Origin: Elusimicrobiota bacterium
GTDB taxonomy: Bacteria > Elusimicrobiota > Elusimicrobia > FEN-1173
Reading direction: 5' to 3'
Length of the DNA: 64,000 bases
Assembly (NCBI GenBank): GCA_016722575.1
Contig: JADKIY010000002.1
Span: forward strand, 136,734-200,733
In this document: positions 41,367 through 61,200 of the stretch, one piece after another
Layout of the letters: the number at the start of each line of letters is the position of its first letter
Position numbering within the stretch: the first letter of the stretch is position 1
The notes under the pieces: generated by a model
Database searches by the model: none
What the model saw: only the letters and a program-made list of their open reading frames with translations
What the model was told of the DNA's origin: nothing
Made by a program: the position numbers and the translations under genes

Positions 41367-42778
41367 TTCCCACGGCCGCCCTCAAATACCTCACCGTTAT
41401 TGACGCCGGCCTGGCGATCCTGTTCTCCATCGTCGTCATTTCCAAAAAACGAGACCCCGCCGTCACCCTGGCCTGGGTTTTGGGATTTTTCTTCCTCCCG
41501 CTTTTGGGCGTCCTCCTTTACGTTTTCTTCGGCTATCAACGAATCCGCCTTCGTCGACGCCAAACGCCGAACCCCAGCGGCCGCCTACCGTCCATTCGGG
41601 CCCCCGACGCTTTGGCCGCCGTGCCGGAACCCCTGCGCGGCGTGGCGGATTTGGCCGATCGTTTGACCGAATACCCCGTCACCGCCGGAAACCGGGTGGA
41701 TGTTTTCACCCGGGCCGACGACACCGACCACGCCCTGACCGCCGCCATCCGGGGCGCCCGGCGGCACATCCACATGTGCTATTACATTTTCGAGCCCGAT
41801 TCCGACGGGATTTTCTTCCGGGACCTCCTGGCCGAAAAAGCCCGGGAAGGCGTTCAGGTGCGCCTGCTCATGGACGCCGTGGGTTCCTTCAGCGTGGACG
41901 ACGACTTTCTGGCGCCCCTCCGCCGCGCGGGAGCCAGGGTGGATTTCTTCGGCCCCTTCGGCACCTTCCGCCGCCCCTGGGCCTTCAACTTCCGCAATCA
42001 CCGGAAATTGACCGTCATCGACGGCCACGTGGGCTTTTTGGGCAGTCAGAACATCGGCCACCATTTTTGGCGGGTGGGGTCCCGGCGCATCGCCTGGCGG
42101 GAAACCGACGTGCGGTTGGAGGGCGCGGCGGTGGAGGAACTGCAAACCGTCTTCGCCGAAGACTGGCACTTCGTCACCCGGGAAAACCTGGCCGGGGAGG
42201 ACTTTTTCCCTCCGCCGGCGCCCGTCGCGGCGGGTTCGACGCTGGTCCAGGCCCTGCCCACGGGCCCCGACCGGAAAGAAAACGCCCTCGCCTTTATTTT
42301 CGTCGAAGCCCTGCACACGGCCCGGGAACGGGTGACCATCACGACGCCCTATTTCATCCCCACCCCGGCGGTGGTCCTGGCCCTGGAAGGCGCGGCCCGG
42401 CGGGGCGTCCGCGTGGACCTGCTGGTCCCCCGGCGCACGGACCACCCGGTGGTCACCTGGGCGGGCCGGAGCTATTTCGACGAGTTTCTGGAAAGCGGCG
42501 TGCGGATCTTCGAATACGGCGAGGCCTTCCTGCACTCCAAGGTGGTGACGGTGGACGGCCGGCTGGCCCTCCTGGGTTCCGCCAACATGGACACCCGGAG
42601 CTTTCTAATCAACTTTGAATTGAGTCTTCTGGTTTACGATGAAAAAGTCGTGGAACGTCTGGTGCATACTTTCGATAAAACGGCGGGCCAGTCCGTGGCC
42701 TTCGCCGCCAGGGCCGCTCGGGCCCCCGTCCGTCATTTCGCCGAAGGCCTCTGCCGGGTCCTTTCCCCCCTTCTTTAA
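41363..42778 (+). CDS. cls: Cardiolipin synthase (PLD superfamily, two HKD motifs)
   Basis: GTG start overlapping the mtgA stop (GTGA at 41363-41366). 'NHRKLTVIDG' and 'FLHSKVVTVDGRLALLGSANMD'. Confidence 0.9.
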   Translation: MIPTAALKYLTVIDAGLAILFSIVVISKKRDPAVTLAWVLGFFFLPLLGVLLYVFFGYQRIRLRRRQTPNPSGRLPSIRAPDALAAVPEPLRGVADLADRLTEYPVTAGNRVDVFTRADDTDHALTAAIRGARRHIHMCYYIFEPDSDGIFFRDLLAEKAREGVQVRLLMDAVGSFSVDDDFLAPLRRAGARVDFFGPFGTFRRPWAFNFRNHRKLTVIDGHVGFLGSQNIGHHFWRVGSRRIAWRETDVRLEGAAVEELQTVFAEDWHFVTRENLAGEDFFPPPAPVAAGSTLVQALPTGPDRKENALAFIFVEALHTARERVTITTPYFIPTPAVVLALEGAARRGVRVDLLVPRRTDHPVVTWAGRSYFDEFLESGVRIFEYGEAFLHSKVVTVDGRLALLGSANMDTRSFLINFELSLLVYDEKVVERLVHTFDKTAGQSVAFAARAARAPVRHFAEGLCRVLSPLL

Positions 42779-42917
42779 CCCTTAAAAGCCGGTTGATTGG
42801 GCTTGTCCGTCCCAGGGCTTTATTTTTTTTCGTCATCCCGGTACGGGCATAACCGGTATCCAGACCGACTCAAACCGCAGGACCCTGGATCCCGGCTAAA
42901 ATCAGGCCGGGATGACG
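42779..42917. repeat. Palindromic repeat element, copy A (139-nt unit; ~87-nt structured core 42831..42917 bounded by 11-bp inverted repeat CGTCATCCCGG/CCGGGATGACG)
   Basis: Direct repeat of copy B (~85% identity over the unit, including the upstream 'cccttaa..gattggg.ttgtccgtccc..ttttttt' segment). Nested inverted repeats 'atccag..ctggat' and 'atcccggc..gccgggat'. Confidence 0.8.
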
Positions 42918-42960
42918 CACTTATCGACGGGAAATGCCCTTACCAAAACCGCATTGGCTT

Positions 42961-43093
42961 TAACCCTTAAGATTGGGTTTGTCCGTCCCCTATGCATTTT
43001 TTTCTCGTCATCCCGGTATGGGTCTAACCGGGATCCAGACCGAGGCAAACCGCAGGACCCCTGGATCCCGGCTAAACAAACGCCGGGATGACG
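42961..43093. repeat. Palindromic repeat element, copy B
   Basis: '...ctcgtcatcccggtatgggtctaaccgggatccagaccgaggcaaaccgcaggacccctggatcccggctaaacaaacgccgggatgacg'. Confidence 0.8.
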
Positions 43094-45289: not shown

Positions 45290-45317
45290 TTGATCAATTA
45301 ATTTTCCGTGCTATAAT
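45290..45317 (+). promoter_or_regulatory. sigma70 promoter TTGATC-N16-(TGc)TATAAT with extended -10, upstream of the fiber-like gene
   Basis: 'TTGATCaattaattttccgtgcTATAAT'. GGAGG SD 7 nt before the ATG at 45381. Confidence 0.5.
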
Positions 45318-45380
45318 CAAAAAGATTTACATCCCGTTCCTGACCTCAAAGTATTATCAACAGCGATCCAGGAGGCCCGT

Positions 45381-46862
45381 CATGGGCGTTAAAAAATCAA
45401 TTTCACGGACATGGTATATCTTTCTCGCGGCCCTGACGAGCGCCGCCATTGCCCACGCGGGGGTTCCCACCAAGATCACCTACCAAGGACGGGTTTTCAA
45501 ATCCGGCGTCGCCGTGACGGGATCCCACACGCTGAATTTAACCGTCGTTGACGCAAACAATACAGCCGACCGTCGAAGCATCGCGCCCATTAATGTTACC
45601 TTGCCCGCGAACGGGGAATTTAGCGTGACCTTTGATCTCCCCCGGATTCGAATGGGACACCAAAGACCCGCAATTGGAAGTGAAGTCGACGGTGATTTAT
45701 TGACCCCCTGGATGATTTCGGCGTCACCCCCTACAGCCTCTTGGCCTCCAGCGTGGCCGCCAACGGTGTTTCAACGCGCTCTTTGCAGGACGGCTCCGTG
45801 ACGAACGTCAAAGTTTCGACGGTGTCCGCCTCGAAAATCATTCTACCCGGCGGCTCCACCCCCATTTCCACCTGGCAATTGGGCGCCGGCAATTTCATCG
45901 ACGCTTCCAAAGTCGCCCTTCCCGGCAGCACCGCTACCGTCGCCTCCTGGCAATACGGCGCTACCGGCTTCATCGATGTCGCCAAAGTGACTGGCACCAT
46001 CCCCACGACTCCCGTGGCCCACGCCACCTCCCACGGACTGGTCGGCACAGACCCATTGAACGGTCTTTCCCCACTACAAATTTCAGGCTCTGCCGTGGTT
46101 TTGCGTTCCACATCGTCCCAAACCATTCAGCCCCAGGTCGGAAGTGATGTGGTTCCCTTAGTTATTAAACCCAACGCCAGCGTTCCTGCAGGGAGCATAA
46201 ACGCTCTTGAGGTATTTACGAATGCCTCGACCACGTCCGTGACAATTCGCGGGGATGGCTTAATGACGGTAAAGGGAACATTGACAGCCAACGGGCCAGT
46301 GAACGCCACCAACGGGCTGACAATTACCGGGAGCCTAAACGTCAGCACGATTGTGCCGAGCGGGAATTTGAATATTAGCGGGCGAGTTCGCGATAATTAC
46401 GGCTATCTCGTCCCCCCCGGAACGATTGTGGCTTTTGCCGGAACGACGGCGCCATCCGGTTGGCTATTATGCGATGGCTCCACAAAAGACAAGTCAATCC
46501 AGCCCGAGTTAAGTGAGTTAAAATTAGTCCTGGGGTCCACCTATGGGGCAGAAACTGCAAATACATTCGTTCTGCCAAATCTAAAAGGACGCGTTCCGAT
46601 GGGATCCGGAATTGGCGCCAGCGCGACCAATTGGACGATTGGAATAAGCACTGGATCGGAAACATACACGCTTTCGATAGCTCAAATCCCACCGCACCAT
46701 CATGGTGGAGTTGTTATTAGCCATACGACAGATGAATTTTCCGCCAATAATAGCCAAGCAATTAAAACAATAACCTACGGCAATACTCAGGATGAAGGCG
46801 GTGGTCAGCCCCATCCCATCATGCAACCCTCCTTGGTCGTAAATTACATAATTAAGTACTGA
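45381..46862 (+). CDS. Secreted phage tail-fibre-like protein with C-terminal tail-collar domain (PF07484-type), interrupted by an apparent -1 frameshift at a C5 tract (45704-45708); low-GC gene
   Basis: Frame 1 45381..45801 ('MGVKKSISRTWYIFLAALTSAAIAHA' signal peptide...). Frame 0 45696..46862 ('FIDPLDDFGVTPYSLLASSVAANG...GTIVAFAGTTAPSGWLLCDGS...LPNLKGRVPMGSG...' collar domain). One extra C in 'tgaCCCCCtgg' restores a single ~493-aa ORF. Confidence 0.65.
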
Positions 46863-46888
46863 TTTATTTTTTAAAAGGGCAATTCAAA

Positions 46889-47485
46889 ATGAAAAGGTTT
46901 CTTCCACTATTGCTTGCCGCAATCAATCTCATTTCCCCCCTCAAGGCCGCCGATCAATCCGTTCAGTCGACGATAAATCGGATGGCCAACGAGTTAACGG
47001 CCACTTACCGATCCAAATCACCCAACGCGAAGCGAGCGCGCCTGGCCATTCTGGACCTTCAAGCCAGCGAAGATTTAAACAAACAACGTATTGGACCGGC
47101 GCTCACAGACATGATCACCAACGAATTCGTCAACAAATCCGATTTCATCGTCCTTGAGCGTGAACTTTTCGGCAAAATCATGGAAGAACACCAACTCCTA
47201 GCCAACTTCGGCGACGTTTCAAACGCCATCAAGGTAGGAAAGGTTTTGGGGGCTGAGGTGGTCTTGCTTGGGAGTGTCACCCAATTCAAAAGCGACCTTC
47301 GAATCAACCTGCGCTTGGTAAACACCGAAACAACCGAAATACTTAGCACCACATCCGGCATGGTTTCATTAAGCGAATTTTCCAAAGAAAATCCAATTTT
47401 CCCAGGATTTGTCCCTATCACTCAAAAAATCGGCTTATTTGCGGTCTTTGAATATCGTTTCCTGGCAAAACGAACACACCAATAA
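46889..47485 (+). CDS. Periplasmic/lipoprotein-type protein with CsgG/TolB-N-like fold (secreted, 198 aa); low-GC gene
   Basis: Signal peptide 'MKRFLPLLLAAINLISPLKA'. 'RLAILDLQA...LTDMITNEFVNKSDFIVLEREL...ILEEHQL...GKVLGAEVVLLGSVTQF...LRINLRLVNTETTEIL' matches the CsgG/FlgO-like pattern. Confidence 0.6.
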   Translation: MKRFLPLLLAAINLISPLKAADQSVQSTINRMANELTATYRSKSPNAKRARLAILDLQASEDLNKQRIGPALTDMITNEFVNKSDFIVLERELFGKIMEEHQLLANFGDVSNAIKVGKVLGAEVVLLGSVTQFKSDLRINLRLVNTETTEILSTTSGMVSLSEFSKENPIFPGFVPITQKIGLFAVFEYRFLAKRTHQ

Positions 47486-48059
47486 TAACCTCAGAAGGTG
47501 CAAGAATTAATGAAATTAATGTTTCAAATTTCTCTTTAGGTTATACAGGCTTGGGGATTCGTTACTTCCCAACAAGGATTATTTTTATCGAAGGATCAGT
47601 CCTCCAAGTAAGCGGCAACAATAACACCAGCAAATCGTTCAATATTTCGGGAAATTCAGGGATAATTGGCAGTTTTCAGGCAAAGGGCAAAGCTTTACGG
47701 TTCAGATTTGGAACAAAAAGAAAACATACTGAAAATCTTTGTTTCCTCCTCTCTCGGCTTTTCGATTCAAAAACTTGACCTTGCGACTGGCGTGGTTCTG
47801 CGAATGGAATCCCAAACCTATCCAAAACAGTCCCTAATTTCAGCATTGGTGCAACCATGAATATTCAACAAAGACTCGCGATTGGCTTGCAAATTCGATG
47901 CGATCTAAGGAAACTTGATGTCCAAAGAAACAGGCTCAAATCAAAAAGTATATTCCCTCAACCCGTTAGTCATTTCCCCTCAACTCACGTTCTATTTCTA
48001 GTCTGAAACAATAATTGCCCGACAAATCCCTCACCCCCATCTTTCTATTCGCCGCGTTT

Positions 48060-51688: not shown

Positions 51689-52285
51689 GTGAAACTCCGT
51701 CTCAAACTACTCTCCATCAGTATTTTAATTTCAGCCCCCCTCCGGGGCGAAATTCACGACCCGACCGGCTCCGGTCTGCGGGTGACGGACGTGGTGGGGT
51801 TCTCCGGTCAAATCATCTCAAGCACCACGAGCCTTCGATCCGCCTCCAGCATCGGCGTTCTTGGCTCCACCATTACTCTTCACGCCACCTCGGGACTCGA
51901 ACTGCGCACCGGACTTTGGGGCGGCGGGCCCTCGCTCAAATCGACTGCCCTCGAACAAACCATCATCTTTGGCGCGCCTCGAACCGCCCGCCTCGTGATC
52001 CCCCCGGGAGCCATCGCGCGGGACTACGCTGTCTTCACCGGCACCAGCCCCGCCACGGAGCCCTTGAACGCTTCCCCCGCTATTCTCCAAACCGCCACGC
52101 GCAATCTGGCGCGGGCCAGTTCCTACAGCAACCCGGCCAACGGCCGTTTGTGGGAAATCTACGTTCAAGACGATAACGGTATTAAGCAATCCGGCGCTCT
52201 CCTTCGCTCCGCAACGCTCACACTTCCCTTTGACGACGTCGACCAGGACGGGCACGTGGACGGCAGCGCGCCCCCGTTCGCGTGA
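51689..52285 (+). CDS. Secreted hypothetical protein (signal peptide); probably the N-terminal part of one ancestral gene with 52282..52734
   Basis: GTG start preceded by an extended -10 'gTGaTATACT'. 'MKLRLKLLSISILISAPLRGE'. Stop overlaps the next start (GTGA). Confidence 0.55.
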   Translation: MKLRLKLLSISILISAPLRGEIHDPTGSGLRVTDVVGFSGQIISSTTSLRSASSIGVLGSTITLHATSGLELRTGLWGGGPSLKSTALEQTIIFGAPRTARLVIPPGAIARDYAVFTGTSPATEPLNASPAILQTATRNLARASSYSNPANGRLWEIYVQDDNGIKQSGALLRSATLTLPFDDVDQDGHVDGSAPPFA

Positions 52286-52734
52286 AAACTCTTTCCATCT
52301 GGTGGCTAGACGAAGTCCATTCGCTGTGGGTCAAAGTCCCGAACCCGACGATCAACACTTCCAGCCAAACCGTCACGGCGCTCATTCCCCACTTTTCGGT
52401 CTACGCCGTCATGGGAGCGCCCTCCTTCGACCCCTCGGAATCCTTCGCCTTCCCCGTGCCCTGGCGGCCGGCGGGGCCCAACGCCGGAAGCGCGGCGGGC
52501 CAAACGGGCACCTTGGCGGGCGGCATCACCTTCACCAATTTGCCGGACGCCTGCACCATCCGCCTTTACACCCTATCGGGCGGGTTGATCCGGGAGATCA
52601 ACCACAGCGTGGGCCTCCAGGAAACCTGGGACGGCCGAAGCGCCGACGGCGAGAATGTCGCCAGCGGCACCTATGTCTGGGTCGTGTCCGCCAACGGCTC
52701 CAAGAAAACCGGCAAACTGGCGGTCATCCGATGA
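52282..52734 (+). CDS. Protein ending in a T9SS-type / FlgD-Ig-like C-terminal beta-sandwich sorting domain; lacks its own signal peptide
   Basis: C-terminus 'ITFTNLPDACTIRLYTLSGGLIREINHSVGLQETWDGRSADGENVASGTYVWVVSANGSKKTGKLAVIR' (Por_Secre_tail/FlgD_ig pattern). One extra C in the C5 tract 52271-52275 would fuse it in frame to 51689..52285. Confidence 0.6.
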   Translation: MKTLSIWWLDEVHSLWVKVPNPTINTSSQTVTALIPHFSVYAVMGAPSFDPSESFAFPVPWRPAGPNAGSAAGQTGTLAGGITFTNLPDACTIRLYTLSGGLIREINHSVGLQETWDGRSADGENVASGTYVWVVSANGSKKTGKLAVIR

Positions 52735-53891
52735 TCGGCCTTCGCCGATTTTCCGGCAAAATTCTTTTTGGAGGCGCGATCGCGTTTCTTGGCTCGACGG
52801 GTTGGGCTTCCGATGGAAGCACCGGGGCGGAATTTCTAAAGATCGGCGCCGGAGCGCGGCCCGCGGCCCTGGGCGACACCCAGGCGGCGCTGTCCGAAGG
52901 CGCCCTGGCGGCCCTCTGGAACCCCGCGGCCCTGGGCGGCCTTTCCTCGGCCGAAATCAGCCTCACCCACAACCGGTGGTTTGAAGGCATCCAGGACCAG
53001 CGCTTTGTGGCCGCCGTCCCGACCAAGTCGGTCGGCACCCTGGCCCTGGCCTACGAACGCCTGGCCATCAACGACTTTCTCTCCTTCGACGCCCAGGGCA
53101 CCAACACCGGGGCGGTCAACTCCGGCGACAGCGTGATTTCCCTGGCCTGGGGGCGAAACCTCGCCCAGGGCGCCACCGGCGGCAGCGGCCTCTACGCCGG
53201 ATTGGCCGCCAAAAGCATCAACGAAAAAATCGCGGGCGTCAGCGCCTCGGGCTTCGCCTTGGATTTTGGATTTCTGTTCCGCCCCTGGGGCCTCACCGCC
53301 CAACGCCTCCCCTGGGTTCGCCGCTCCAGCCTGGGCTTCTACGCGAAGAACCTGGGCCAGGGCCTCAAATTCGACGAGGAAAACGCCCCCCTTCCGACGG
53401 AATACGACCTGGGCGCGGGCTACAGCCAACCCCTGGGCGGCGACATTCTTAACCTCGGCCTCGATTACCACCTGGTGACCGGCGAAACCGCCGCCGTGAG
53501 CGCCGGCATGGAATATTGGATGAAAAACCTTCTGGCCCTCCGCCTGGGCTACCGGACTTCCGACGTGAACGGCCTGGGTTTCCGCGCCGGGGCGGGTTTC
53601 AAGGTCGGCAAAATCCAGGCCGACTACGCCTGGGCCGCCACCGGCGAAGATTTCGGGCCCTCCCACCGGATCACTCTCACCTACCGTTTTGGTCCCGCCG
53701 CCGTGGCCCCCGGCCTGGCCGCCGACCTGGTCGACGACTACATCGCCCGGGGCAAGCGCCACATGGAACTGGGTCTCTACGACCGCGCGATTTTGGAATT
53801 CAACGAAGCGCTCTCCATCCACCCCGGCGACGAATCGGTCCGGGCCCTGCTGATGGAATGCGGCGAGAAAATGGAGAAAGCGGCCCCGTGA
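52731..53891 (+). CDS. Outer-membrane beta-barrel protein of the PorV/PorQ (UPF0164, FadL-superfamily) type
   Basis: ATG overlapping the previous stop (ATGA). Signal peptide, N-terminal 'GAEFLKIGAGARPAALGDTQAALSEGALAALWNPAAL' signature, alternating beta-strand pattern, C-terminal aromatic 'LTYRF'. Confidence 0.65.
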   Translation: MIGLRRFSGKILFGGAIAFLGSTGWASDGSTGAEFLKIGAGARPAALGDTQAALSEGALAALWNPAALGGLSSAEISLTHNRWFEGIQDQRFVAAVPTKSVGTLALAYERLAINDFLSFDAQGTNTGAVNSGDSVISLAWGRNLAQGATGGSGLYAGLAAKSINEKIAGVSASGFALDFGFLFRPWGLTAQRLPWVRRSSLGFYAKNLGQGLKFDEENAPLPTEYDLGAGYSQPLGGDILNLGLDYHLVTGETAAVSAGMEYWMKNLLALRLGYRTSDVNGLGFRAGAGFKVGKIQADYAWAATGEDFGPSHRITLTYRFGPAAVAPGLAADLVDDYIARGKRHMELGLYDRAILEFNEALSIHPGDESVRALLMECGEKMEKAAP

Positions 53892-55129
53892 GCCGTTCCG
53901 CCGTTTTCGGCGCGGCGGCCCTCTTCCTTTTACCGTCGATCGCCCAAACCGCTCCCCCCGTTCCCGAGGCGGCCATCGCCCCGGCCAACGATCTCAAACA
54001 AATCCTGAAAACGGCCCGGCAATTGGAATTGAAGGGCGATTACCGCGCCGCCTGCCGGACCTACCTCTCCGCCCTCCCCGATCACGCCGCCGACCTTCGA
54101 ATCCAAACCGGTCTCAAGCGCGCCGCCGGCGCCCTGGCCCGGGACATGGACGCCCAACGGCAAAAAGCCACGGACCGCTACGTGCGCGACGCCCAAATGA
54201 GCGCCGACCGGTCCTACGCCTACCAGAAAAGCCAGCGGGACCGGGTCGTCAAAGCGAAACGGTTGATTTCGAAGGGCCAATACCTGGCCGCCTCGGACGC
54301 GCTGAACACGATATTGGAGGAATCTCCCGGCATGGACGAAGCCCGGGACCAGTTGGACCGCGCCACGCGGCTCATGGCGGGTCGGCTCAAGCGCGGCAAG
54401 TTTCCGACGGTGCAACACCAGGCGGTCTGGGAAGGACTTGTCTTTTACAATCGCGCGGATTTTGAATCCGCCGCCCGCTCCCTGCGCCTGGCCCTCAGCG
54501 CCGGTTCGATTCCGACCGATCTCGCGGACGCCCGGGTGGAAAATTACGCCGTGCTGGCCGAGAAGAAACAGGCCCTGGCCCTCTGGCGCCAGGAGCGGCA
54601 AATCCTCCTCCTCAAAGCCGAGAACGCCAAGAAAGACGGCGACCTGGCCGCGGCCAAGGCCTCCTACGAACGAATTTTGAATAAAGACCCCGGCGACGCC
54701 GACGCCCGAGCCGGCCTGGAAAACCTGGGCTCCGTCGTGAAAGCCGTCGAAAAAGCCGTGGTCAAAGAAGTGCGCCGCAAGGAAGTCCCCGACCTCCTGG
54801 CCAAGGGCACCATCGACATGGTCCACGAACGTTACACCGACGCCCTGGAATCTTTTCACGCCGTTTTGCAGTTGGAACCCGACAACGCCGAAGCCAAGGA
54901 ACAGATCAACGAAGTGCAGCGGCTCATGAAAGGGCGCAAGCTCTACGTCCCCCCCGTGAACGTCAAGAGCGCCGCCGACGATAAATACCGGGAAGGCCTC
55001 AAACTCTACGGCAACGAACAATATTCCGAAGCCCAGGCCGCCTTTGAAGAAGCCCTCCAAATCGACCCCAAGCACGACGACGCCCGCCAAGCTCTCAAAC
55101 GCTTAAAAGACCAAGCCAAGCAACCGTAA
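53888..55129 (+). CDS. Secreted tetratricopeptide-repeat protein
   Basis: GTG overlapping the PorV-like stop (GTGA). Signal peptide 'VSRSAVFGAAALFLLPSIAQTAPP'. Multiple TPR-like helical pairs, with a C-terminal 'YSEAQAAFEEALQIDPKHDDARQAL'. Confidence 0.7.
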   Translation: MSRSAVFGAAALFLLPSIAQTAPPVPEAAIAPANDLKQILKTARQLELKGDYRAACRTYLSALPDHAADLRIQTGLKRAAGALARDMDAQRQKATDRYVRDAQMSADRSYAYQKSQRDRVVKAKRLISKGQYLAASDALNTILEESPGMDEARDQLDRATRLMAGRLKRGKFPTVQHQAVWEGLVFYNRADFESAARSLRLALSAGSIPTDLADARVENYAVLAEKKQALALWRQERQILLLKAENAKKDGDLAAAKASYERILNKDPGDADARAGLENLGSVVKAVEKAVVKEVRRKEVPDLLAKGTIDMVHERYTDALESFHAVLQLEPDNAEAKEQINEVQRLMKGRKLYVPPVNVKSAADDKYREGLKLYGNEQYSEAQAAFEEALQIDPKHDDARQALKRLKDQAKQP

Positions 55130-55193
55130 ATCGGCTCCCGTTTTTCCCCGCCGTTTGGATGTAAAATCATTGGAAACTATCTGTTTTTACTGA

Positions 55194-55287: not shown

Positions 55288-58200
55288 ATGGCGACCGCCA
55301 AACCTCTGTTGATTCGACCCCTATTCCTTCTGGCCCGGCGCCTACGCCGGGTCGGTTTTGTTTGTGGGCGGTTGGCCTTCCCCGCCCTCCGTTTATCGAC
55401 GGCGGGGGCCTTCCTTTTCGTCACCCTGGCGACCCCCTTCTCCCAGGCCCGGGCCCAGAGCCGGGCGTCCTTCTCCTCCCGCCAATACGACGAGTTTTCC
55501 ACTTCCCGGGAAGACGGCGACTACTTCAGCCCCGACCGCCTTCGCCAACGCCTCCACACCTTGGACACCATGGTGGAGGGCCTCAACAACCGTTTCGCCC
55601 GGCTCCAGGGCCGTTCCTTGGACCGCGGCGCGTCGGAGAACCTGACGCCCCAGGTGTTCCAAGCCGCGCTGGAACGATTCCAGGCGGCCGCCCAATTCTC
55701 CTCGGAAATTGAAATGAAGCGGGCCCAGTTCTCCCAAACCCTGGCCTCCGCCGGGGGCTTCCAGTTCCGTTCCTACCCCGACGGCCGCCGAATGTGGTTT
55801 AAAAACGGCCGAGTCCACCGCATCGAAAACGAAAAAATCACCGACGGCCAGGGCCGGGTCGGCCACCAGGACGTGGTGGACATGGCCTACGACAAACGAG
55901 GGAATCTCCTTTCCTCCAAAACCATCCTCCGGGACGCCGACGGGCATCTGACCACCAAAAACTGGGTCGGGACCTACGCCGACGGGCCCAACGGGAAATC
56001 CGTTCTGGCCTCCTTCGCCGAAACCACCTGGGACCCCCTGGGGAACGAAACCAAAATCGAACGGACCGGCCTGACCTACGGCGACGGCGGGAAAAATGCG
56101 ATCTCCTATCAGGAAACGACCACCGACAAATACGGGCAGACCGCCCGGCGCACCGTCACGGGCTCCTCCTACGATGGGGACGGAAACCTTCTTTCCTTTC
56201 ACGAAGAATCCGAGGAAAACGGCGTCGCCCTGTCCAAGGATTGGTCCGGCGCCGTCTACCAGAAATACCAACGGGACGGCAAAGACGCCTGGCGCCTGAC
56301 CTCCTACAGCGAAACCACGACCGACGCCCAGGGGCGCCAAAGCCGCCGGGAGTGGGGCGGCGCGACCTACGACGAAAACAATTCCTTAAAGACCTACACC
56401 CAGAAAGACACCGACTCCTCCGGCGAAAGCCGGGTTCTGACCTGGGGCGGGGCCCGCTACGACGCCCGGGGCAACGTGACGGAATTTACGGAAACCCGGA
56501 CGGGTCCGGAGGGAGAGTCGCGGCGGACCTGGCGGGGCGGCCAATACGACGCCCACAGCCGCCTGACCGATTTTGAGGAGTTGAACGTCGACGCCCAGGG
56601 CGTCTCCACCAGCCGCCGCTGGTCGGGGGCGGAATACAACGCCAAAGGCGACCTTCTCCGATATCGCGAAACCGACGTGGACGGCCACGGTTTGGAATCG
56701 GTTCGAACCTGGACGGCCGGTTCCTACAACGACGGACGCCTCACCGCTTACTCCGAAACGACCGTGGACGACCGGGGCCACGCGGCCCTTCGTCAATGGA
56801 ACGGGCTTTACGGCGCCGACCGTCGGTTGGGCTCCTTCAGCGAAGAGTCCACCGATGCCCTGGGGAACGTCACCCGACGGGGCCAGGAGGGATTGACCTA
56901 CGATTCCCTGGGCCGCGCCCAGGCCTACGACGAATGGTCCGAGGACGCCTTTGGCCAGCGAACGGCGTCCCGTTGGACCGCCGCGGGCTACGACCTCAAG
57001 GATCGCCTCACCGGTTACCAATTAATCGAAACCCTTCCCTCCGGCCGAACCATGACGACCGCCCGAAGCGCCATGACTTACGACTCCGCCGGGCGGTTGG
57101 CGCAATACGACGACGCCCTGACGGCCCAGGGAGGAAATTCCCCCGACGCCACGGGGCGGCAGACGGTCCGGGTCCTGTCCTTTGATGCCTTTGGCCAGGC
57201 CACGCTGACCCAAACCACCTCCACCAACGCCCTGGGCGAAGCGACCGAGCGGACCCACCAAGCGGAATACGACGGCCGGGGCCGGTTGGCCTCCACCGCC
57301 GACACCCTCCGGTCCGCCGACGGCGCGCCGGACGTCGCCCGTTGGTCCGTCGACGCCTTTGACGAATACGACCGCGCCACGGCCACCCGGGAAATCACGG
57401 GCGCGGGCGAAAGCGAAAAAACAAAAGTTTGGTCGGGCCGGTTCGATTCCAAAGGACTCGCGACGGAATCCACCGAAACGACCACCGACGCCCGGGGCCT
57501 TTCCATCACCACCCGCCTCTCCGACGCCGTCCACAACGCCCAGGGCCGGTTGACGGATTCCCTGCAAGTCACCCAACGCTCGGACATGCCCGGCGTGACC
57601 ATCGAAACCCGAACGACCGAGCGAACCTACGACCGGGCCGGCGCCGTGACCGGCGGGCGGGAAGTCACCCGAACCACCGGGGAATGGAACGGCCAACCCC
57701 TGGATGTCACCACCGTCCGCCGGACGGAGGAAGCCGTTCTGGCCGACGGGTTCGTCACGGGCTATCGGCAAACCGTCCTCACGACCGGCGTCTCGGACGG
57801 GAGATCCCTTCACACCCAGGATGAAACTCGCGTCGCTTTGGGCGCGAAGGGAGATCGCACCGAGACCACCCATCGGTTGGCCTTTGGGAAGGACGAAATC
57901 CTTGAAACCGACGCCTATTCGACCCTGCGGCGAACCAACCTGCTGGCGGACCTGGCCGGCCGCGCCCTTTCCTACACTGAGGAACGGTCCGAAGATTTCT
58001 CCCCCTTGGCCAAAACAACGACCCGGCGGGAAAACCGCTATTCGGCCGCGGGAGTCCTGACAGGGTTCACCGAGGACTCCGTGGACGGCCTGGGGCTCCG
58101 CTCCCACAGCGAAACCATCGGCCTGGTGGAGAACGCCGCCGGCCAACAGATCGCCAGTCGGGAACGCATCACGCACCCCGGCCAAACGGTGGTGGTGGAC

Positions 58201-61200
58201 GAGATCGCCAAATCCGAAATAGTCTATTCCCCCCTGGGCCAATTGGCTTCCTACCGGGAACAAACCCTTTCGACCGGGCCCGGGCTTTCCAACGCCGCCG
58301 ACGCCCGTAAAACCCTGAGCTACGACGGGGCCGGCCGAGTCGCCGTCTCGAGCGAAACGGGCACGCGAAACGGCGCGGCCTATACCACCAACACCTTCAA
58401 CGCCGCCTTCGATTTGAAAGGCCGCCCAGTTCATTCCGTGGAAGAATCCACGGGCCCCGGCGGTCCCTCCGACATCGAACGGTCCGCCGTCGCCTTCGAC
58501 GATTTCGGCCGGCGGGTTTCCTACCACGAAGAAGGCGTTGCCGGCGGGTCCATGGTCCATCAAACCGTCGCCACGGAATACGACGCCCTGGGCCGGGAGG
58601 CGGCCACCGAAACCACCGGTTTCCGGGAATCGGGCGCCTTCCGCGAGCGGAGCGAAACCACGGGGATCAACGATTTGGGCCAATCGACCGGCCGGCGGGT
58701 CACGGGGCATTCGGCCGCCGAAGGCGATTACGCTTATTCCCAGACCGGACAGGTTTACGGCCTGGCCGGTGATTTAATTTCGTTTGATAAAGAACGCACC
58801 GATGTCGACGGCATCACCCGTTCCCATTGGGCGTCCAAAGGCGCCGACGCCCGGGGCCGCTCCCTGGGTTATACCGAGACCGGGTCGGTCGCCAAAGACG
58901 GCCAGCCCCTTTACGAGTTCACGACCGAGCAAACGGCCGGGGCCTACACCCTTCAAAACCAAGCGGCCTCCTACGACGCCGTCACCACCAAACGATTCTC
59001 CAACGGCCCGGTGGAAACCGCCGCCACCCATTGGACCGACGGGGCCTACGACGCCCAGGGCCGCTTGACGGGCTTTAAAGAAACCCAAACGACGACGTTG
59101 ACCGACAACGGCCAAACGAAAACGTCCACGACCTCCCGCCTTCGGGAAAGCGCCACCTACTACGACGACAACGGGCCCGGCCATCTCAAAGGCCAGTTGG
59201 CCTCCACGGTCGAAGTCCTGCTGGACGATTTGTCGCCGGAAAAAGCCCGGCGGGTCCGAACCGCCGGCATGACCTACGACGCCGAGGGCCGTTTGATCGG
59301 CGCCGAATCCACGACCGGCGAGGTGAACCGGCTGAAGGACGCGCTCCGGCGCCTGGGCGATCTGCTGGGCGGCGGCGCGAAGGCGGGCGGAAACATTTTG
59401 ACCGGCCTGCGCCAACTTTTGGAGAACACCGCCGACCTAACCTCCGACGTTGTGGCCTGGGCAAAGGACAACCTGGTTTCCCCCACCCAGGTCTTCCTGG
59501 AGGGCCTGGGCGCCTGGCTGGCCGACGTGGCGGGTGGCAAAGGCGCCGCCAATCCCGCGCTGGACCGCGAAGCCGTGTCGGAACTGGTTTATCGAATTCA
59601 CGAAAAGGCCGGCGGCGCCAACCTCGAGGAGATCCCCGCGGGATTTCAGTCCGCCGCCGCGGCGTTGGGGACCTTCGACCAAACGCTCACGGTGACCCGC
59701 GCCGTGGACAAAGTGTTTGACCCCCAGGGCCGGGCCACCGCCTGGCGCGAGATCGCCCTTTCCGCCTCGGCCCCGGACCGCCCGGCCGTCACCGACGTTC
59801 GCGTCACCTACAAGGACAATTCCCGACTCCTCTCGACCTACGCCGCCCGTACCGTGGAAGGCGAAAAAGTGACCCAGCTTTTCCGGGACCATTACGCCTA
59901 CGACGCCTTAAACCGCGGTCTCTACCGCGAAGCGACCTTCGAGGGCGAGGACCTCGCTGTTCTCTCCGTTGAAAAAGGGAATGTTTCCACCACCGGCGCC
60001 CAGTGGGGCTCGCTAAAAGGCGAGGCGCGCTCCCTGCTCCTCTCGGACATATTGGAGGGCAGCACGGAAATCATCGGCAAGGTGGATTTCAAACGAATCG
60101 ACGACGCGACCTTTGACGCGGCCGGGAACATGCTGGACATTTTCGGAACCCGAACGACTCGGGGAATTGTTTTGTCGGATTTCGCCCAAGGGCAAGCCAT
60201 CCCAAGCGATTACGGCGCCATGGTCGAATCCGCGCTGAAGGCGGCCCAGGCCGAATACGACCAATCCCTCGCCGCCCTCGCCGAAATCGCCGACGCGGCG
60301 GAAGCCCAAGCCTCCCTTCAAAAAAACGCGGTCGCCCGGGACCAAGGGGCGGTTCAGGACGCCGACGACTTGTTGAAAGCCGCCATCGCCGCCAAGGAAG
60401 ACGCCCTGGCGCGGCTGGCGCAGGCCGGCAAACGAAAATCCGAACTGGAGGCGGCCGTGGCGCAGTTCGTTTCCGACCGCAAGGAAATCGACCGTCAATC
60501 AATCACCCCGCGAACTCCCATTGCGCCCATTGTTTCCCCCGAATACGTGAAAGACGGCAAAACCTATGTGGACGTCACGACCACCCAGTGGTACCAAGTT
60601 CTCAAATTCGACGACGCCGGCAACTTGGTTAAGACCTTTGTCCAACGCCTGACGACGGATCGCAATCTGGTCGGGGGCCATGGCGGCGGGCCCGTCGACC
60701 GCACCGTGACCGAATCCGAAGCCGATCCGGGGAGTCTTTTCGGATTTTCGTCTGGGAATCGAGGAACCGAGATATTGTTAAAAGCCGACGACGGCCACGG
60801 CGCCTGGGCCGACAAACTTCCCCAAGGGGACGCCCCCAGCTTCCAAATCGACGGCAAGCGCCTTTTCTCTTTGAGTCCATCCGCCGTCGCCGCCCTCACC
60901 CGGTTGGCCGACCTTCACCGATCCCTCGCCGCCACGGTCGCCGAAACCGACCAATCCACCACGAATTTCAATGCGGCCGTTATCGCCGTTAACACCGCCG
61001 CCGCCGACCTGCAAACGGCCAACGCGGCCTTGGCCGTTTCCCAGTCGGCCCTGGACGCCGCCCAAAGCGCCGCGCAATCGGCCCAATCGGAACTTCAAAA
61101 CATAAAAGTCCAAGGATTGTCCGGCCTCGAAAACAAAAAAATCGCCATCGCGGGCGAATTTGCCGCCAACGCCGCCGCCCTGGCTAAAACGCTTTCGGGT

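Follow-up and report, generated by a model that had tools for sequence, protein, structure and literature searches.

What kind of protein is encoded by a gene that begins with a signal peptide, ends in a phage-type tail-collar tip and is read in more than one frame, and does the break in its reading frame belong to the organism or to its assembly? In the window (the whole 64,000-nucleotide stretch of contig JADKIY010000002.1 analyzed here), two ORFs at 45382-45801 and 45696-46862 yield one 493-aa protein once the C5 run at 45704-45708 gains a C; reading base 45708 twice, which equals the addition of one C, gives a single 493-aa ORF. We consider it very probable that the gene lies on the chromosome of an Elusimicrobiota bacterium from activated sludge and encodes an exported fiber of ~493 aa, composed of a Sec signal peptide, an N-domain of the mosaic adhesive trimer (MAT) superfamily (as defined by Caulton et al., 2024; PMC10769870), a stalk and a collar tip of the T4 gp12 type. 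The features of the gene are as follows.

45290-45317, + strand: promoter-like site, TTGATC-16 nt-TATAAT with TG upstream, 10 of 12 consensus positions (a consensus match only)
45370-45375, + strand: Shine-Dalgarno sequence AGGAGG, 6 nt 5' of the ATG at 45382 (from sequence)
45382-45801, + strand: first ORF, from its ATG, frame mod 1
45382-45459, + strand: predicted signal peptide MGVKKSISRTWYIFLAALTSAAIAHA, then G; Sec type I features, judged by eye from sequence
45460-45642, + strand: first part of the MAT-like beta-rich N-terminal domain, frame mod 1 (alignments A1 and A3)
45639-45643, + strand: frame break 1, C5 run with one surplus C, mod 1 to mod 2
45644-45685, + strand: N-domain segment GFEWDTKDPQLEVK with the family-invariant W and L, frame mod 2
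45685-45686, + strand: frame break 2, one base lost where AAG/GTC is expected, not a long homopolymer
45685-45708, + strand: N-domain segment VDGDLLTP, frame mod 1 again
45696-46862, + strand: second ORF, open from 45696 to the stop, frame mod 0
45704-45708, + strand: frame break 3, C5 run with one C lost, the break flagged originally
45708-46400, + strand: end of the N-domain and fiber stalk, frame mod 0
46401-46862, + strand: C-terminal tip, with the Pfam Collar core at 46419-46598, HxH at 46695-46703 and the stop codon at 46860-46862

The architecture given in the original prediction, a signal peptide, a fiber body and a C-terminal tail-collar tip, is correct, as is its proposal that the two ORFs represent one ancestral gene. 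The full-length homologs are colinear single ORFs and, therefore, the two halves are not independent proteins; where the metagenome-assembled genome (MAG) is annotated with a "tail fiber protein" of 354 aa and a hypothetical protein of 198 aa, both are probably truncated versions. An intact homolog, P0001, has an identical signal peptide except for an H-to-Q change in the AHA/AQA cleavage motif, and in its AF2 model residues 28-110, which match the segment at 45460-45642, have pLDDT values of 82-94. The stalk region includes a tandem ~25-aa repeat (PGGSTPISTWQLGAGNFIDASKV / PGSTATVASWQYGATGFIDVAKV) with low AF2 confidence (pLDDT <50, monomer model), which is expected because a lone chain of a trimer was modeled. 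Also in agreement with the original prediction, the GC content is lower in the gene (0.54) and its tip (0.49) than in the window (0.626), and phage genes were not found among the neighbors.

The identity of the tip was established with the search that had been proposed for it: PF07484 (Phage Tail Collar) matched residues 347-406 over the full profile (1-57) with 62.6 bits and an E value of 3.4e-17 (gathering threshold, 24 bits), and it is also matched by all close homologs. PHROG tail families match with E values down to 6e-23. T4 gp12 was matched both by sequence (1pdi, E 2.6e-7) and as the top Foldseek match of the model (5iv5_AI, E 7.9e-5), in which the tip has pLDDT values of 83-96. The HxH motif of the tip is conserved (alignment A1), so that in sequence, fold and HxH the tip is like those of T4 gp12, PF07484 Collar and PF21939 Gp10_C. 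In gp12 this motif binds zinc. Compared with T4 gp12, however, only the last ~150 residues match, and the protein encoded here has a signal peptide, no baseplate role and no phage neighbors. Most of the database matches to the tip carry the JGI name "microcystin-dependent protein" (MdpB/COG4675), which is given to chromosomal, non-phage collar-domain proteins; that name covers the collar domain alone, and most of these matches lack the N-domain and stalk found here (20-45% query coverage).

These data bear on the suggestion in the original prediction that the gene encodes an orphan receptor-binding fiber of a tailocin or contractile injection system encoded elsewhere, or on the related possibility of a phage fiber left by a prophage. 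Consistent with such an origin are the PHROG tail matches and the 38-44% identity that the tip shares with the corresponding part of minor tail proteins from phages. The phage-like portion is, however, the tip only (aa 342-495): the N-domain and stalk have no match in 50,697 phage genomes or in IMG/VR, and no phage record spans ≥80% of the protein. The chromosomal context is also stable across several strains, the neighbors of the fiber gene being constant in four of them (an acyltransferase, a rhomboid protease, a CsgG-like outer-membrane protein and an RND pump), and the N-domain is assigned to the MAT superfamily through its relatives. Since a Sec signal peptide is unfit for a protein that is assembled onto a tail in the cytoplasm, the protein is not a tailocin or contractile-injection-system fiber, and we regard an origin of this kind as very improbable. 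As a structural part of a phage or tailocin particle the protein was rejected, as it has a signal peptide and is without tail or baseplate gene neighbors.

The relationship of the predicted exported fiber to the MAT superfamily was examined through its N-domain. A profile built from exact sub-sequences only, not from frame-corrected composites, retrieved 4,425 cluster representatives, and in nearly all of them the N-domain begins at residue 20-30. We scanned 92 of these relatives (N-domain-profile E values from 3e-54 to 1.4e-11), and 31 of them matched NF053851 (Bdello_MAT_N), with a best E value of 3.5e-25. Their tips are diverse, with 19 Collar and five Peptidase_S74 domains in addition to collagen, C1q and YadA heads. 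P0001, P0003 and P0005 match NF053851 directly but weakly, with 22-26 bits (below the cutoff of 60). The window-type N-domain itself has no score against the NCBIfam MAT profiles and its membership of the superfamily is, therefore, transitive.

In its predicted organization the fiber is like the MAT proteins of Bdellovibrio bacteriovorus, which have a signal peptide followed directly by a beta-rich N-domain (~130 aa), a stalk and an exchangeable C-terminal tip, and the N-domain relatives, including those that match Bdello_MAT_N, have S74, C1q/TNF-like, collagen and collar tips. It differs from them in size (~490-560 aa here, ~1,000 aa in the Bdellovibrio MAT fibers) and in its host, an activated-sludge Elusimicrobiota bacterium that is not a known predator. 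The term "tail collar" does not occur in the searched text of the MAT paper (PMC10769870). By analogy with the Bdellovibrio MAT fibers and with the short tail fibers of phages, we expect that the fiber would trimerize, that the N-domain would hold it at the cell surface and that the tip would bind a saccharide or another surface ligand.

Several genes downstream of the fiber gene are relevant to its possible export and to the cause of its breaks.

46889-47998, + strand: partner gene, with a signal peptide, a CsgG/FlgO/LpoB-like domain and a beta-barrel-like C-terminal domain ending in LTFYF
51689-52734, + strand: gene for a secreted protein whose C-terminal domain is of the FlgD-Ig/T9SS type, interrupted by one extra C in the C5 run 52271-52275
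52731-53891, + strand: PorV/PorQ-family outer-membrane protein of locus B (NF033709, 138.5 bits, cutoff 90)
53888-55129, + strand: TPR protein of locus B; the order PorV-TPR-fiber is kept in L003, L008 and L009
55107-55160, no strand: empty site of a second fiber gene (P0005, 542 aa, with an alternative tip, in a related strain), absent here

The partner, which is an intact 371-aa protein in L001, is broken four times in the window, at ~47460, 47733, 47800 and 47915. Its match to PF03783 (53.9 bits, cutoff 20.8) covers only positions 34-104 of the 210 in the profile, it also exceeds the cutoffs of PF17680 and PF13036, and it has no lipobox Cys; its CsgG-type match is a domain-level one and does not signify membership of a curli system. 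With its CsgG-like periplasmic domain and variable beta-barrel, this protein would be the best candidate for export or anchoring of the fiber, a link suggested by synteny and co-variation. At locus B, the PorV-TPR-fiber order is kept at 34-39% identity. Unlike the case of the Bdellovibrio MAT fibers, candidate outer-membrane partners (the CsgG-like/beta-barrel protein and the PorV-TPR pair) can thus be linked to fibers here. The broken genes and the missing second fiber gene form one surface-fiber neighborhood, which counts against an assembly artifact, as adaptive loss would give the same picture.

The fiber and its partner form a low-GC two-gene cassette that differs strongly between strains. 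The flanks of the cassette are 99.7% identical to those in L001 and free of indels, with dS values of 0.015-0.026, whereas the stalk has a dS of 0.61 relative to L001 with a dN/dS of 0.03, and segments of the partner barrel in homology-defined frames have dN/dS ratios of 0.04-0.18. Allele dS values exceed those of the flanks 25- to 60-fold; the alleles are of ancient origin and evolve under purifying selection. The nearest intact allele is 77% identical, the P0002 cluster has a single member, and no JGI metagenome contig matched the window allele around the C run when scanned for the exact pattern with 4-7 bases allowed. P0078 was considered as an intact copy of the partner allele and rejected, as it is a third, very different barrel allele. 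Three pairs (L008b and L009, P0004 and P0005, and L001 and L006) have the same N-domain and stalk with either a collar or an alternative tip and show that tips are swapped between alleles and paralogs, in keeping with the mosaic build of a constant N-terminal end and exchangeable tips. Hypervariable surface antigens swapped by recombination are also known from O-antigen and flagellin loci. The present cassette resembles these in being a low-GC island amid near-identical flanks, with high dS between alleles and purifying selection within them; it is unlike them in pairing a fiber with a beta-barrel partner and in exchanging whole domains (tip and barrel).

The reading frame of the fiber gene was compared with those of intact homologs. 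The original prediction was of a single frameshift, and it is right that the C5 run at 45704-45708 lacks a C and that one C joins the ORFs: at this junction five full-length homologs (493-525 aa) are uninterrupted, reading "...LTPNDQFGVTPYS...". The gene is, however, broken three times, at 45639-45643, ~45685 and 45704-45708. The invariant "GF.W....L.V" of the N-domain lies in a third frame, at 45644-45685 (GFEWDTKDPQLEVK), and therefore the C5 run at 45639-45643 has one C too many and 45685/45686 is one base short. The originally proposed repair by itself leaves a stretch of 14 residues (RIRMGHQRPAIGSE) scrambled and without the invariant W. The gene at 52271 had been described as having the same lesion type; its break, too, lies in a C5 run but has the opposite sign, with one extra C. 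The intact homologs of that gene are 348 aa in length and read APPVRVKSLSIWW at the C5 site, and all complete copies in other assemblies among the listed matches of ≥90% identity are intact at 348 aa. Across the three genes there are thus eight breaks (three in the fiber gene, four in the partner and one at 52271), all of them indels of 1-2 bp.

Could these runs be sites of regulated switching? The original prediction hinted at a meaning of the C5 lesions, in that both genes encode secreted or surface proteins. In the manner of a contingency locus, slipped-strand mispairing at C runs would toggle expression, and three of the eight breaks are indeed in C5 runs of genes for exported proteins, at a locus that is hypervariable, as contingency loci frequently are. 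Known switching tracts are typically ≥7 bases in length. The C5 runs fall below this, there are 235 C/G runs of ≥5 in the window, and the tracts are not kept in homologs, P0001 having ACCCCGAAT at the equivalent site. Moreover, several simultaneous breaks, some of them off homopolymers, would not be reversed by one slip. We thus give very little credence to phase variation, and the locus was rejected as a phase-variable one based on its C5 tracts only and three breaks in the fiber gene, one off-run. The case for a biological meaning of the C5 lesions is weak: several of the eight indels fall outside homopolymers, a pattern that is better explained by errors in the consensus of a long-read MAG.

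Programmed ribosomal frameshifting would allow the assembled sequence to be translated into the full-length protein, and slippage of tRNA-Pro is conceivable from the sequence at CCC_C (+1) at 45640-45643 and at C_CCC (-1) at 45705-45708. However, every homolog is encoded in a single frame and four more recoding events would be needed in the partner gene. As there is no slippery site at the second break (AAG/TCG at 45685), recoding is effectively refuted.

We lean toward the explanation that all eight breaks are errors left uncorrected in the consensus of a metagenome assembly based on nanopore reads. The sequence seems to come from a MAG obtained from activated sludge by nanopore-based sequencing, its project being deduced from accession and locus-tag series: the contig is 1.1 Mb in length and its series (IPP68, MBL03495xx) fits those of the sister Elusimicrobia MAGs IPN65, IPP09 and MBL0360898, and Supplementary Data 3 of a study that combined nanopore and Illumina sequencing (PMC8012365) includes one of these sister MAGs, JADJDY. 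Two sister MAGs compared over 13.7 kb differ by 12 single-base homopolymer indels versus 32 mismatches, with fragmented genes, and in another sister MAG a paralogous fiber is split into 286 and 273 aa. The residual homopolymer indels of R9-era nanopore sequencing (PMC8012365; PMC9262707) are likewise single-base and gene-splitting, although here they differ in being clustered at least 100-fold in one 2.5-kb island and in lying, in several instances, off long homopolymers. Also against an artifact are the lack of any indel over 8.5 kb of flanks containing 164 homopolymer runs, relative to short-read assemblies, and the finding that at least three indels are not within runs of three or more bases. 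Since the assembly looks clean outside the island, seven errors in 2.5 kb need a local cause, such as mixed strains or a drop in coverage. We propose that such errors would gather where co-existing strains carry widely differing alleles, so that polishing fails there, in which case the living cell most likely produces intact proteins.

Alternatively, the breaks may be real and the strain may have recently inactivated its surface-fiber system, with the fiber, partner and 52271 genes frameshifted and the second fiber gene deleted, through relaxed selection or through selection to shed a structure exploited by phages or predators. Restriction of the indels to these genes between indel-free flanks is in keeping with this, as are the missing fiber gene at 55107-55160 and the natural presence/absence variation of fiber genes between strains (L008 and L009). 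The ~50 other genes of the window seem intact; a GC3/ORF map and a reading of overlapping ORFs gave no other split genes in the window, the overlaps resolving into separate intact genes (e.g., an ABC ATPase and permease, GpsA and Der). However, with the usual indel to substitution ratio assumed to be ~1:10, seven neutral indels in 2.3 kb imply at least ~70 substitutions and several in-frame stops, and there are no in-frame stops in the homology-defined segments of the broken genes. Larger deletions are also absent, the promoter and Shine-Dalgarno sequence are intact, the out-of-frame segments retain signatures of purifying selection, and assemblies of the source project tend to contain indel errors. 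We consequently judge real inactivation to be unlikely, if still credible. Were the breaks real, the frameshifting of fiber A, its beta-barrel partner and the T9SS-CTD-like protein together with the deletion of fiber B would indicate strong selection against fiber display. The flagged frameshift is probably more informative on the assembly than on the organism.

Phage-like adhesive fibers of the MAT type have so far been characterized in the predator Bdellovibrio. The identification of the fiber places them in an uncultured lineage of the Elusimicrobiota as well, and shows their N-domain family, with its thousands of cluster representatives, to be a large one. If the link between fiber and partner holds, it would be a pointer to where the surface anchor of the MAT fibers may be sought. 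A broader joint reading, in which this strain has dismantled a MAT-like fiber system and MAT fibers occur outside predators together with co-varying outer-membrane proteins, is a speculative one that we think rather improbable; within it, whatever the cause of the breaks, the CsgG-like/beta-barrel protein or the PorV-TPR pair could be the counterpart of the Bdellovibrio MAT anchor or export partner. The locus is a clean natural case of tip swapping and ancient allele polymorphism in a cassette of a fiber and its putative outer-membrane partner.

The fibre gene (45382–46862, + strand) is open in two overlapping frames, 45382–45801 and 45696–46862, which one added C in the C5 run at 45704–45708 fuses into a 493-aa ORF, as the original prediction described. 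The low GC content noted there was also found (0.54 for the gene and 0.49 for its tip, versus 0.626 for the window). The features of the gene and its neighbor, the partner gene (46889–47998, + strand), are as follows.

45290–45317, + strand: promoter-like site matching the consensus closely, TTGATC-16-TATAAT
45370–45375, + strand: Shine-Dalgarno sequence AGGAGG, upstream of the ATG
45382, + strand: ATG opening the frame that ends at 45801
45639–45643, + strand: C5 run, first break; repaired by removing one C
45685/45686, + strand: second break; repaired by inserting one base
45696 to the stop at 46862, + strand: second open frame
45704–45708, + strand: C5 run, third break and the one predicted; repaired by inserting one C
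About 47460, 47733, 47800, and 47915, + strand: frame switches in the partner gene; no in-frame stops

The predicted break is real, but the claim of a single frameshift was incomplete, as homologs revealed the breaks at 45639–45643 and 45685/45686. Five full-length homologs identified by protein search (P0001, with 77% identity, P0003, P0004, P0006, and P0007) are single ORFs, and in the alignment they continue unbroken across the reported junction ('LTPNDQFGVTPYS'). The conserved block preceding it, GF(K/D)W....L(E/K)(V/I).VD, sits in the window's third frame ('GFEWDTKDPQLEVK', 45644–45685), while frame A reads 'RIRMGHQRPAIGSE' over the same positions, without the invariant W. After three single-base repairs the protein is colinear, 493 aa long, and has all invariant residues and no stops. 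The same protein search returned P0002, the public 354-aa record of the window's own C-terminal fragment, which is annotated "MAG: tail fiber protein [Elusimicrobia bacterium]" and lies on a 1.1-Mb contig. As this annotation begins at an internal GTG (45798), the signal peptide and N-domain are missing from it; the start is probably an artifact of the frame breaks.

The prediction of a secreted, tail-fiber-like protein was borne out by a signal-peptide-like N-terminus and a full-length match of the fused protein to the Phage Tail Collar domain (PF07484, 62.6 bits, E 3.4e-17). The fused protein also matches PHROG tail families. The tip resembles the T4 short tail fiber gp12 both in sequence (family profile against PDB, 1pdi, E 2.6e-7) and in fold, since an AlphaFold2 model of the intact homolog P0001 (tip pLDDT 83–96) had the T4 baseplate chain 5iv5_AI as its closest PDB match, with a cyanophage tail fiber second. 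As judged by sequence, only the tip resembles phage proteins: matches were present in 313 of 50,697 phage genomes, all confined to residues about 261–495, mostly 342–495, at 28–44% identity, and stalk-specific patterns found no stalk relatives in IMG/VR. The proposal of an orphan tailocin or contractile injection system fiber was therefore not supported, given this restriction to the tip, the N-terminal signal and the MAT-like N-domain.

The putative Sec signal peptide has a basic n-region, a hydrophobic core and AHA followed by G, and is directly followed by a beta-rich domain (pLDDT 82–94 in the P0001 model). A search of 1.84 billion representative proteins with a profile of this N-domain gave 4,425 hits at E <= 1e-3 (157 at E <= 1e-10). 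The proteins hit range from 130 to 2,890 aa, and in nearly all of them the domain begins at residue 20–30. Among 92 hits scanned, 31 matched NCBIfam NF053851 (Bdello_MAT_N; best E 3.5e-25), and C-terminal modules in the scanned set included Collar (19), Peptidase_S74 (5), collagen, C1q, YadA head, and others. The mosaic adhesive trimers (MATs) defined in Bdellovibrio are surface fibers that carry a signal peptide, a beta-rich N-domain of ~130 aa that is conserved, and adhesive tips of mosaic make-up, among which are S74 and TNF-like types (PMC10769870). The window gene appears to share this order of signal peptide, beta-rich N-domain and exchangeable tip. Based on these profile matches and this architecture, we filed the gene in a wider MAT-like superfamily, as a putative surface fiber with a gp12-type tip. 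The link is transitive, not direct: P0001, P0003, and P0005 match NF053851 with scores under its cutoff, and the window's own N-domain type had no hit to it.

In a related strain (L003), a fiber gene of 1.8 kb follows PorV-family and TPR genes and encodes P0005 (542 aa, with a non-collar tip); by comparison, this second fiber gene is missing at the equivalent site in the window, 55107–55160. The PorV-TPR-fiber order recurs in relatives that are just 34–39% identical (L008 and L009). From synteny and co-variation, we infer that the CsgG-like/barrel protein encoded by the partner gene, and PorV-TPR, may act as fiber partner or anchor. Directly after the second fiber locus, a giant ORF (55288–63999, + strand; 2,900 aa or longer) leaves the window; it had no Pfam hit, and in a sister MAG (L088) a 4,795-aa gene holds the equivalent position after the RND pump. 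The product of the gene at 51689–52734 (+ strand) is secreted and weakly matches FlgD-Ig, CHU_C and T9SS sorting domains. This gene adjoins a PorV/PorQ-family gene, a pairing that hints that PorV-dependent modules for surface attachment may extend beyond Bacteroidota, here in an Elusimicrobiota genome.

Frame breaks also occur in other genes. The partner gene is intact at 371 aa in a near-identical strain (L001); in the window only 198 aa are open and the remainder needs the four frame switches. The gene at 51689–52734 is intact (348 aa) in many other assemblies with copies at least 90% identical. Its lesion, at 52271, had been called the same type as that in the fiber gene; both are C5-run indels, but of opposite sign, with an extra C at 52271 and a C to be added at 45704–45708. 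The frameshift is most probably not biological. Programmed frameshifting is unlikely, as 45685 has no slippery site and homologs are encoded in one frame, and so is phase variation at the C runs, considering that the tracts are just C5, are not conserved, and that multiple breaks occur simultaneously.

We lean toward consensus error as the cause. All eight lesions are 1–2 bp indels, and each homology-defined segment is stop-free with purifying selection still visible. If indels and substitutions arise at the usual ratio, assumed here to be about 1:10, seven neutral indels would be accompanied by some 70 substitutions or more, along with several stop codons. This argues against a real, recent inactivation of fiber-related genes, which we regard as possible but doubtful, even though the broken genes and the missing second fiber gene form one functional neighborhood, as adaptive loss predicts. 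The window comes from a 1.1-Mb contig, and the locus-tag and accession series of this contig (IPP68, MBL03495xx) runs on from the one used for sister Elusimicrobia MAGs (IPN65, IPP09; MBL0360898). One of these, JADJDY, appears in Supplementary Data 3 of an activated-sludge study whose assembly description gives nanopore reads, CANU assembly and polishing by Racon, medaka, and Illumina-Racon (PMC8012365). Two sister MAGs of that project, L088 and L089 (JADJDY010000001 and JADJZV010000008), are 99.8% identical over 13.7 kb, with 32 mismatches and 12 single-base indels, almost all within short homopolymer runs (2–7 bases); L089 has TPR, RND-pump, and giant genes fragmented by single-base indels, and the paralogous 559-aa fiber of another sister MAG is divided into pieces of 286 and 273 aa. 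The breaks fall in the segments that diverge most from strain to strain; pileups of mixed reads there would keep polishing from working and leave indels uncorrected. Three observations count against consensus error: the flanks that were compared contain 164 homopolymer runs but no indels, roughly 50 other window genes look intact, and several of the indels lie outside runs.

Two short-read assemblies (L001 and L002) have the same neighborhood of acyltransferase, rhomboid protease, fiber, CsgG-like gene, and RND pump, with flanks 99.7% identical to the window and no indels in 8.5 kb. Inside 45400–47930, identity drops to 44–92%.

Nei-Gojobori estimates for segments of the locus
Flanking genes: dS 0.015–0.026
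First 86 codons (signal peptide and N-domain start): dS 0.80, dN/dS 0.43
Stalk: dS 0.61, dN/dS 0.03
Collar tip: dS 0.97, dN/dS 0.21
Partner's barrel segments, in homology-defined frames: dS >1, dN/dS 0.04–0.18

Across four strains the partner's periplasmic CsgG-like domain is 91–97% identical, whereas its C-terminal barrel is only 36–72% identical. A third strain (L007) has a third, very divergent barrel allele and an IS200-type Y1 transposase gene (1504–2190) between the partner gene and RND pump. Upstream of the acyltransferase gene, an intergenic ~145-bp element occurs in two copies ~80% alike (window 42773–42917 and 42958–43093), and is duplicated also in L001 and L002. The GTDB representative MAG (L006) has a non-collar tip at the fiber locus, and tips differ on a shared N-domain and stalk in P0004 versus P0005 and in L008b versus L009, indicating that tips are swapped. 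An alternative tip ('...GTEGG.F..GAWRVRTLNTV...WRAPA.RV...'), with no match in Pfam or NCBIfam, recurs on different stalks (P0005; L006 2076–3815; L009 5950–7542; L008 2855–4576). Low GC is common to all alleles and is a stable property. The interest of the region is modest, and centers on the hypervariable fiber-plus-partner cassette and not on the C5 tract; these comparisons indicate that, much like surface-antigen loci, it has old alleles that purifying selection maintains and that strains exchange.
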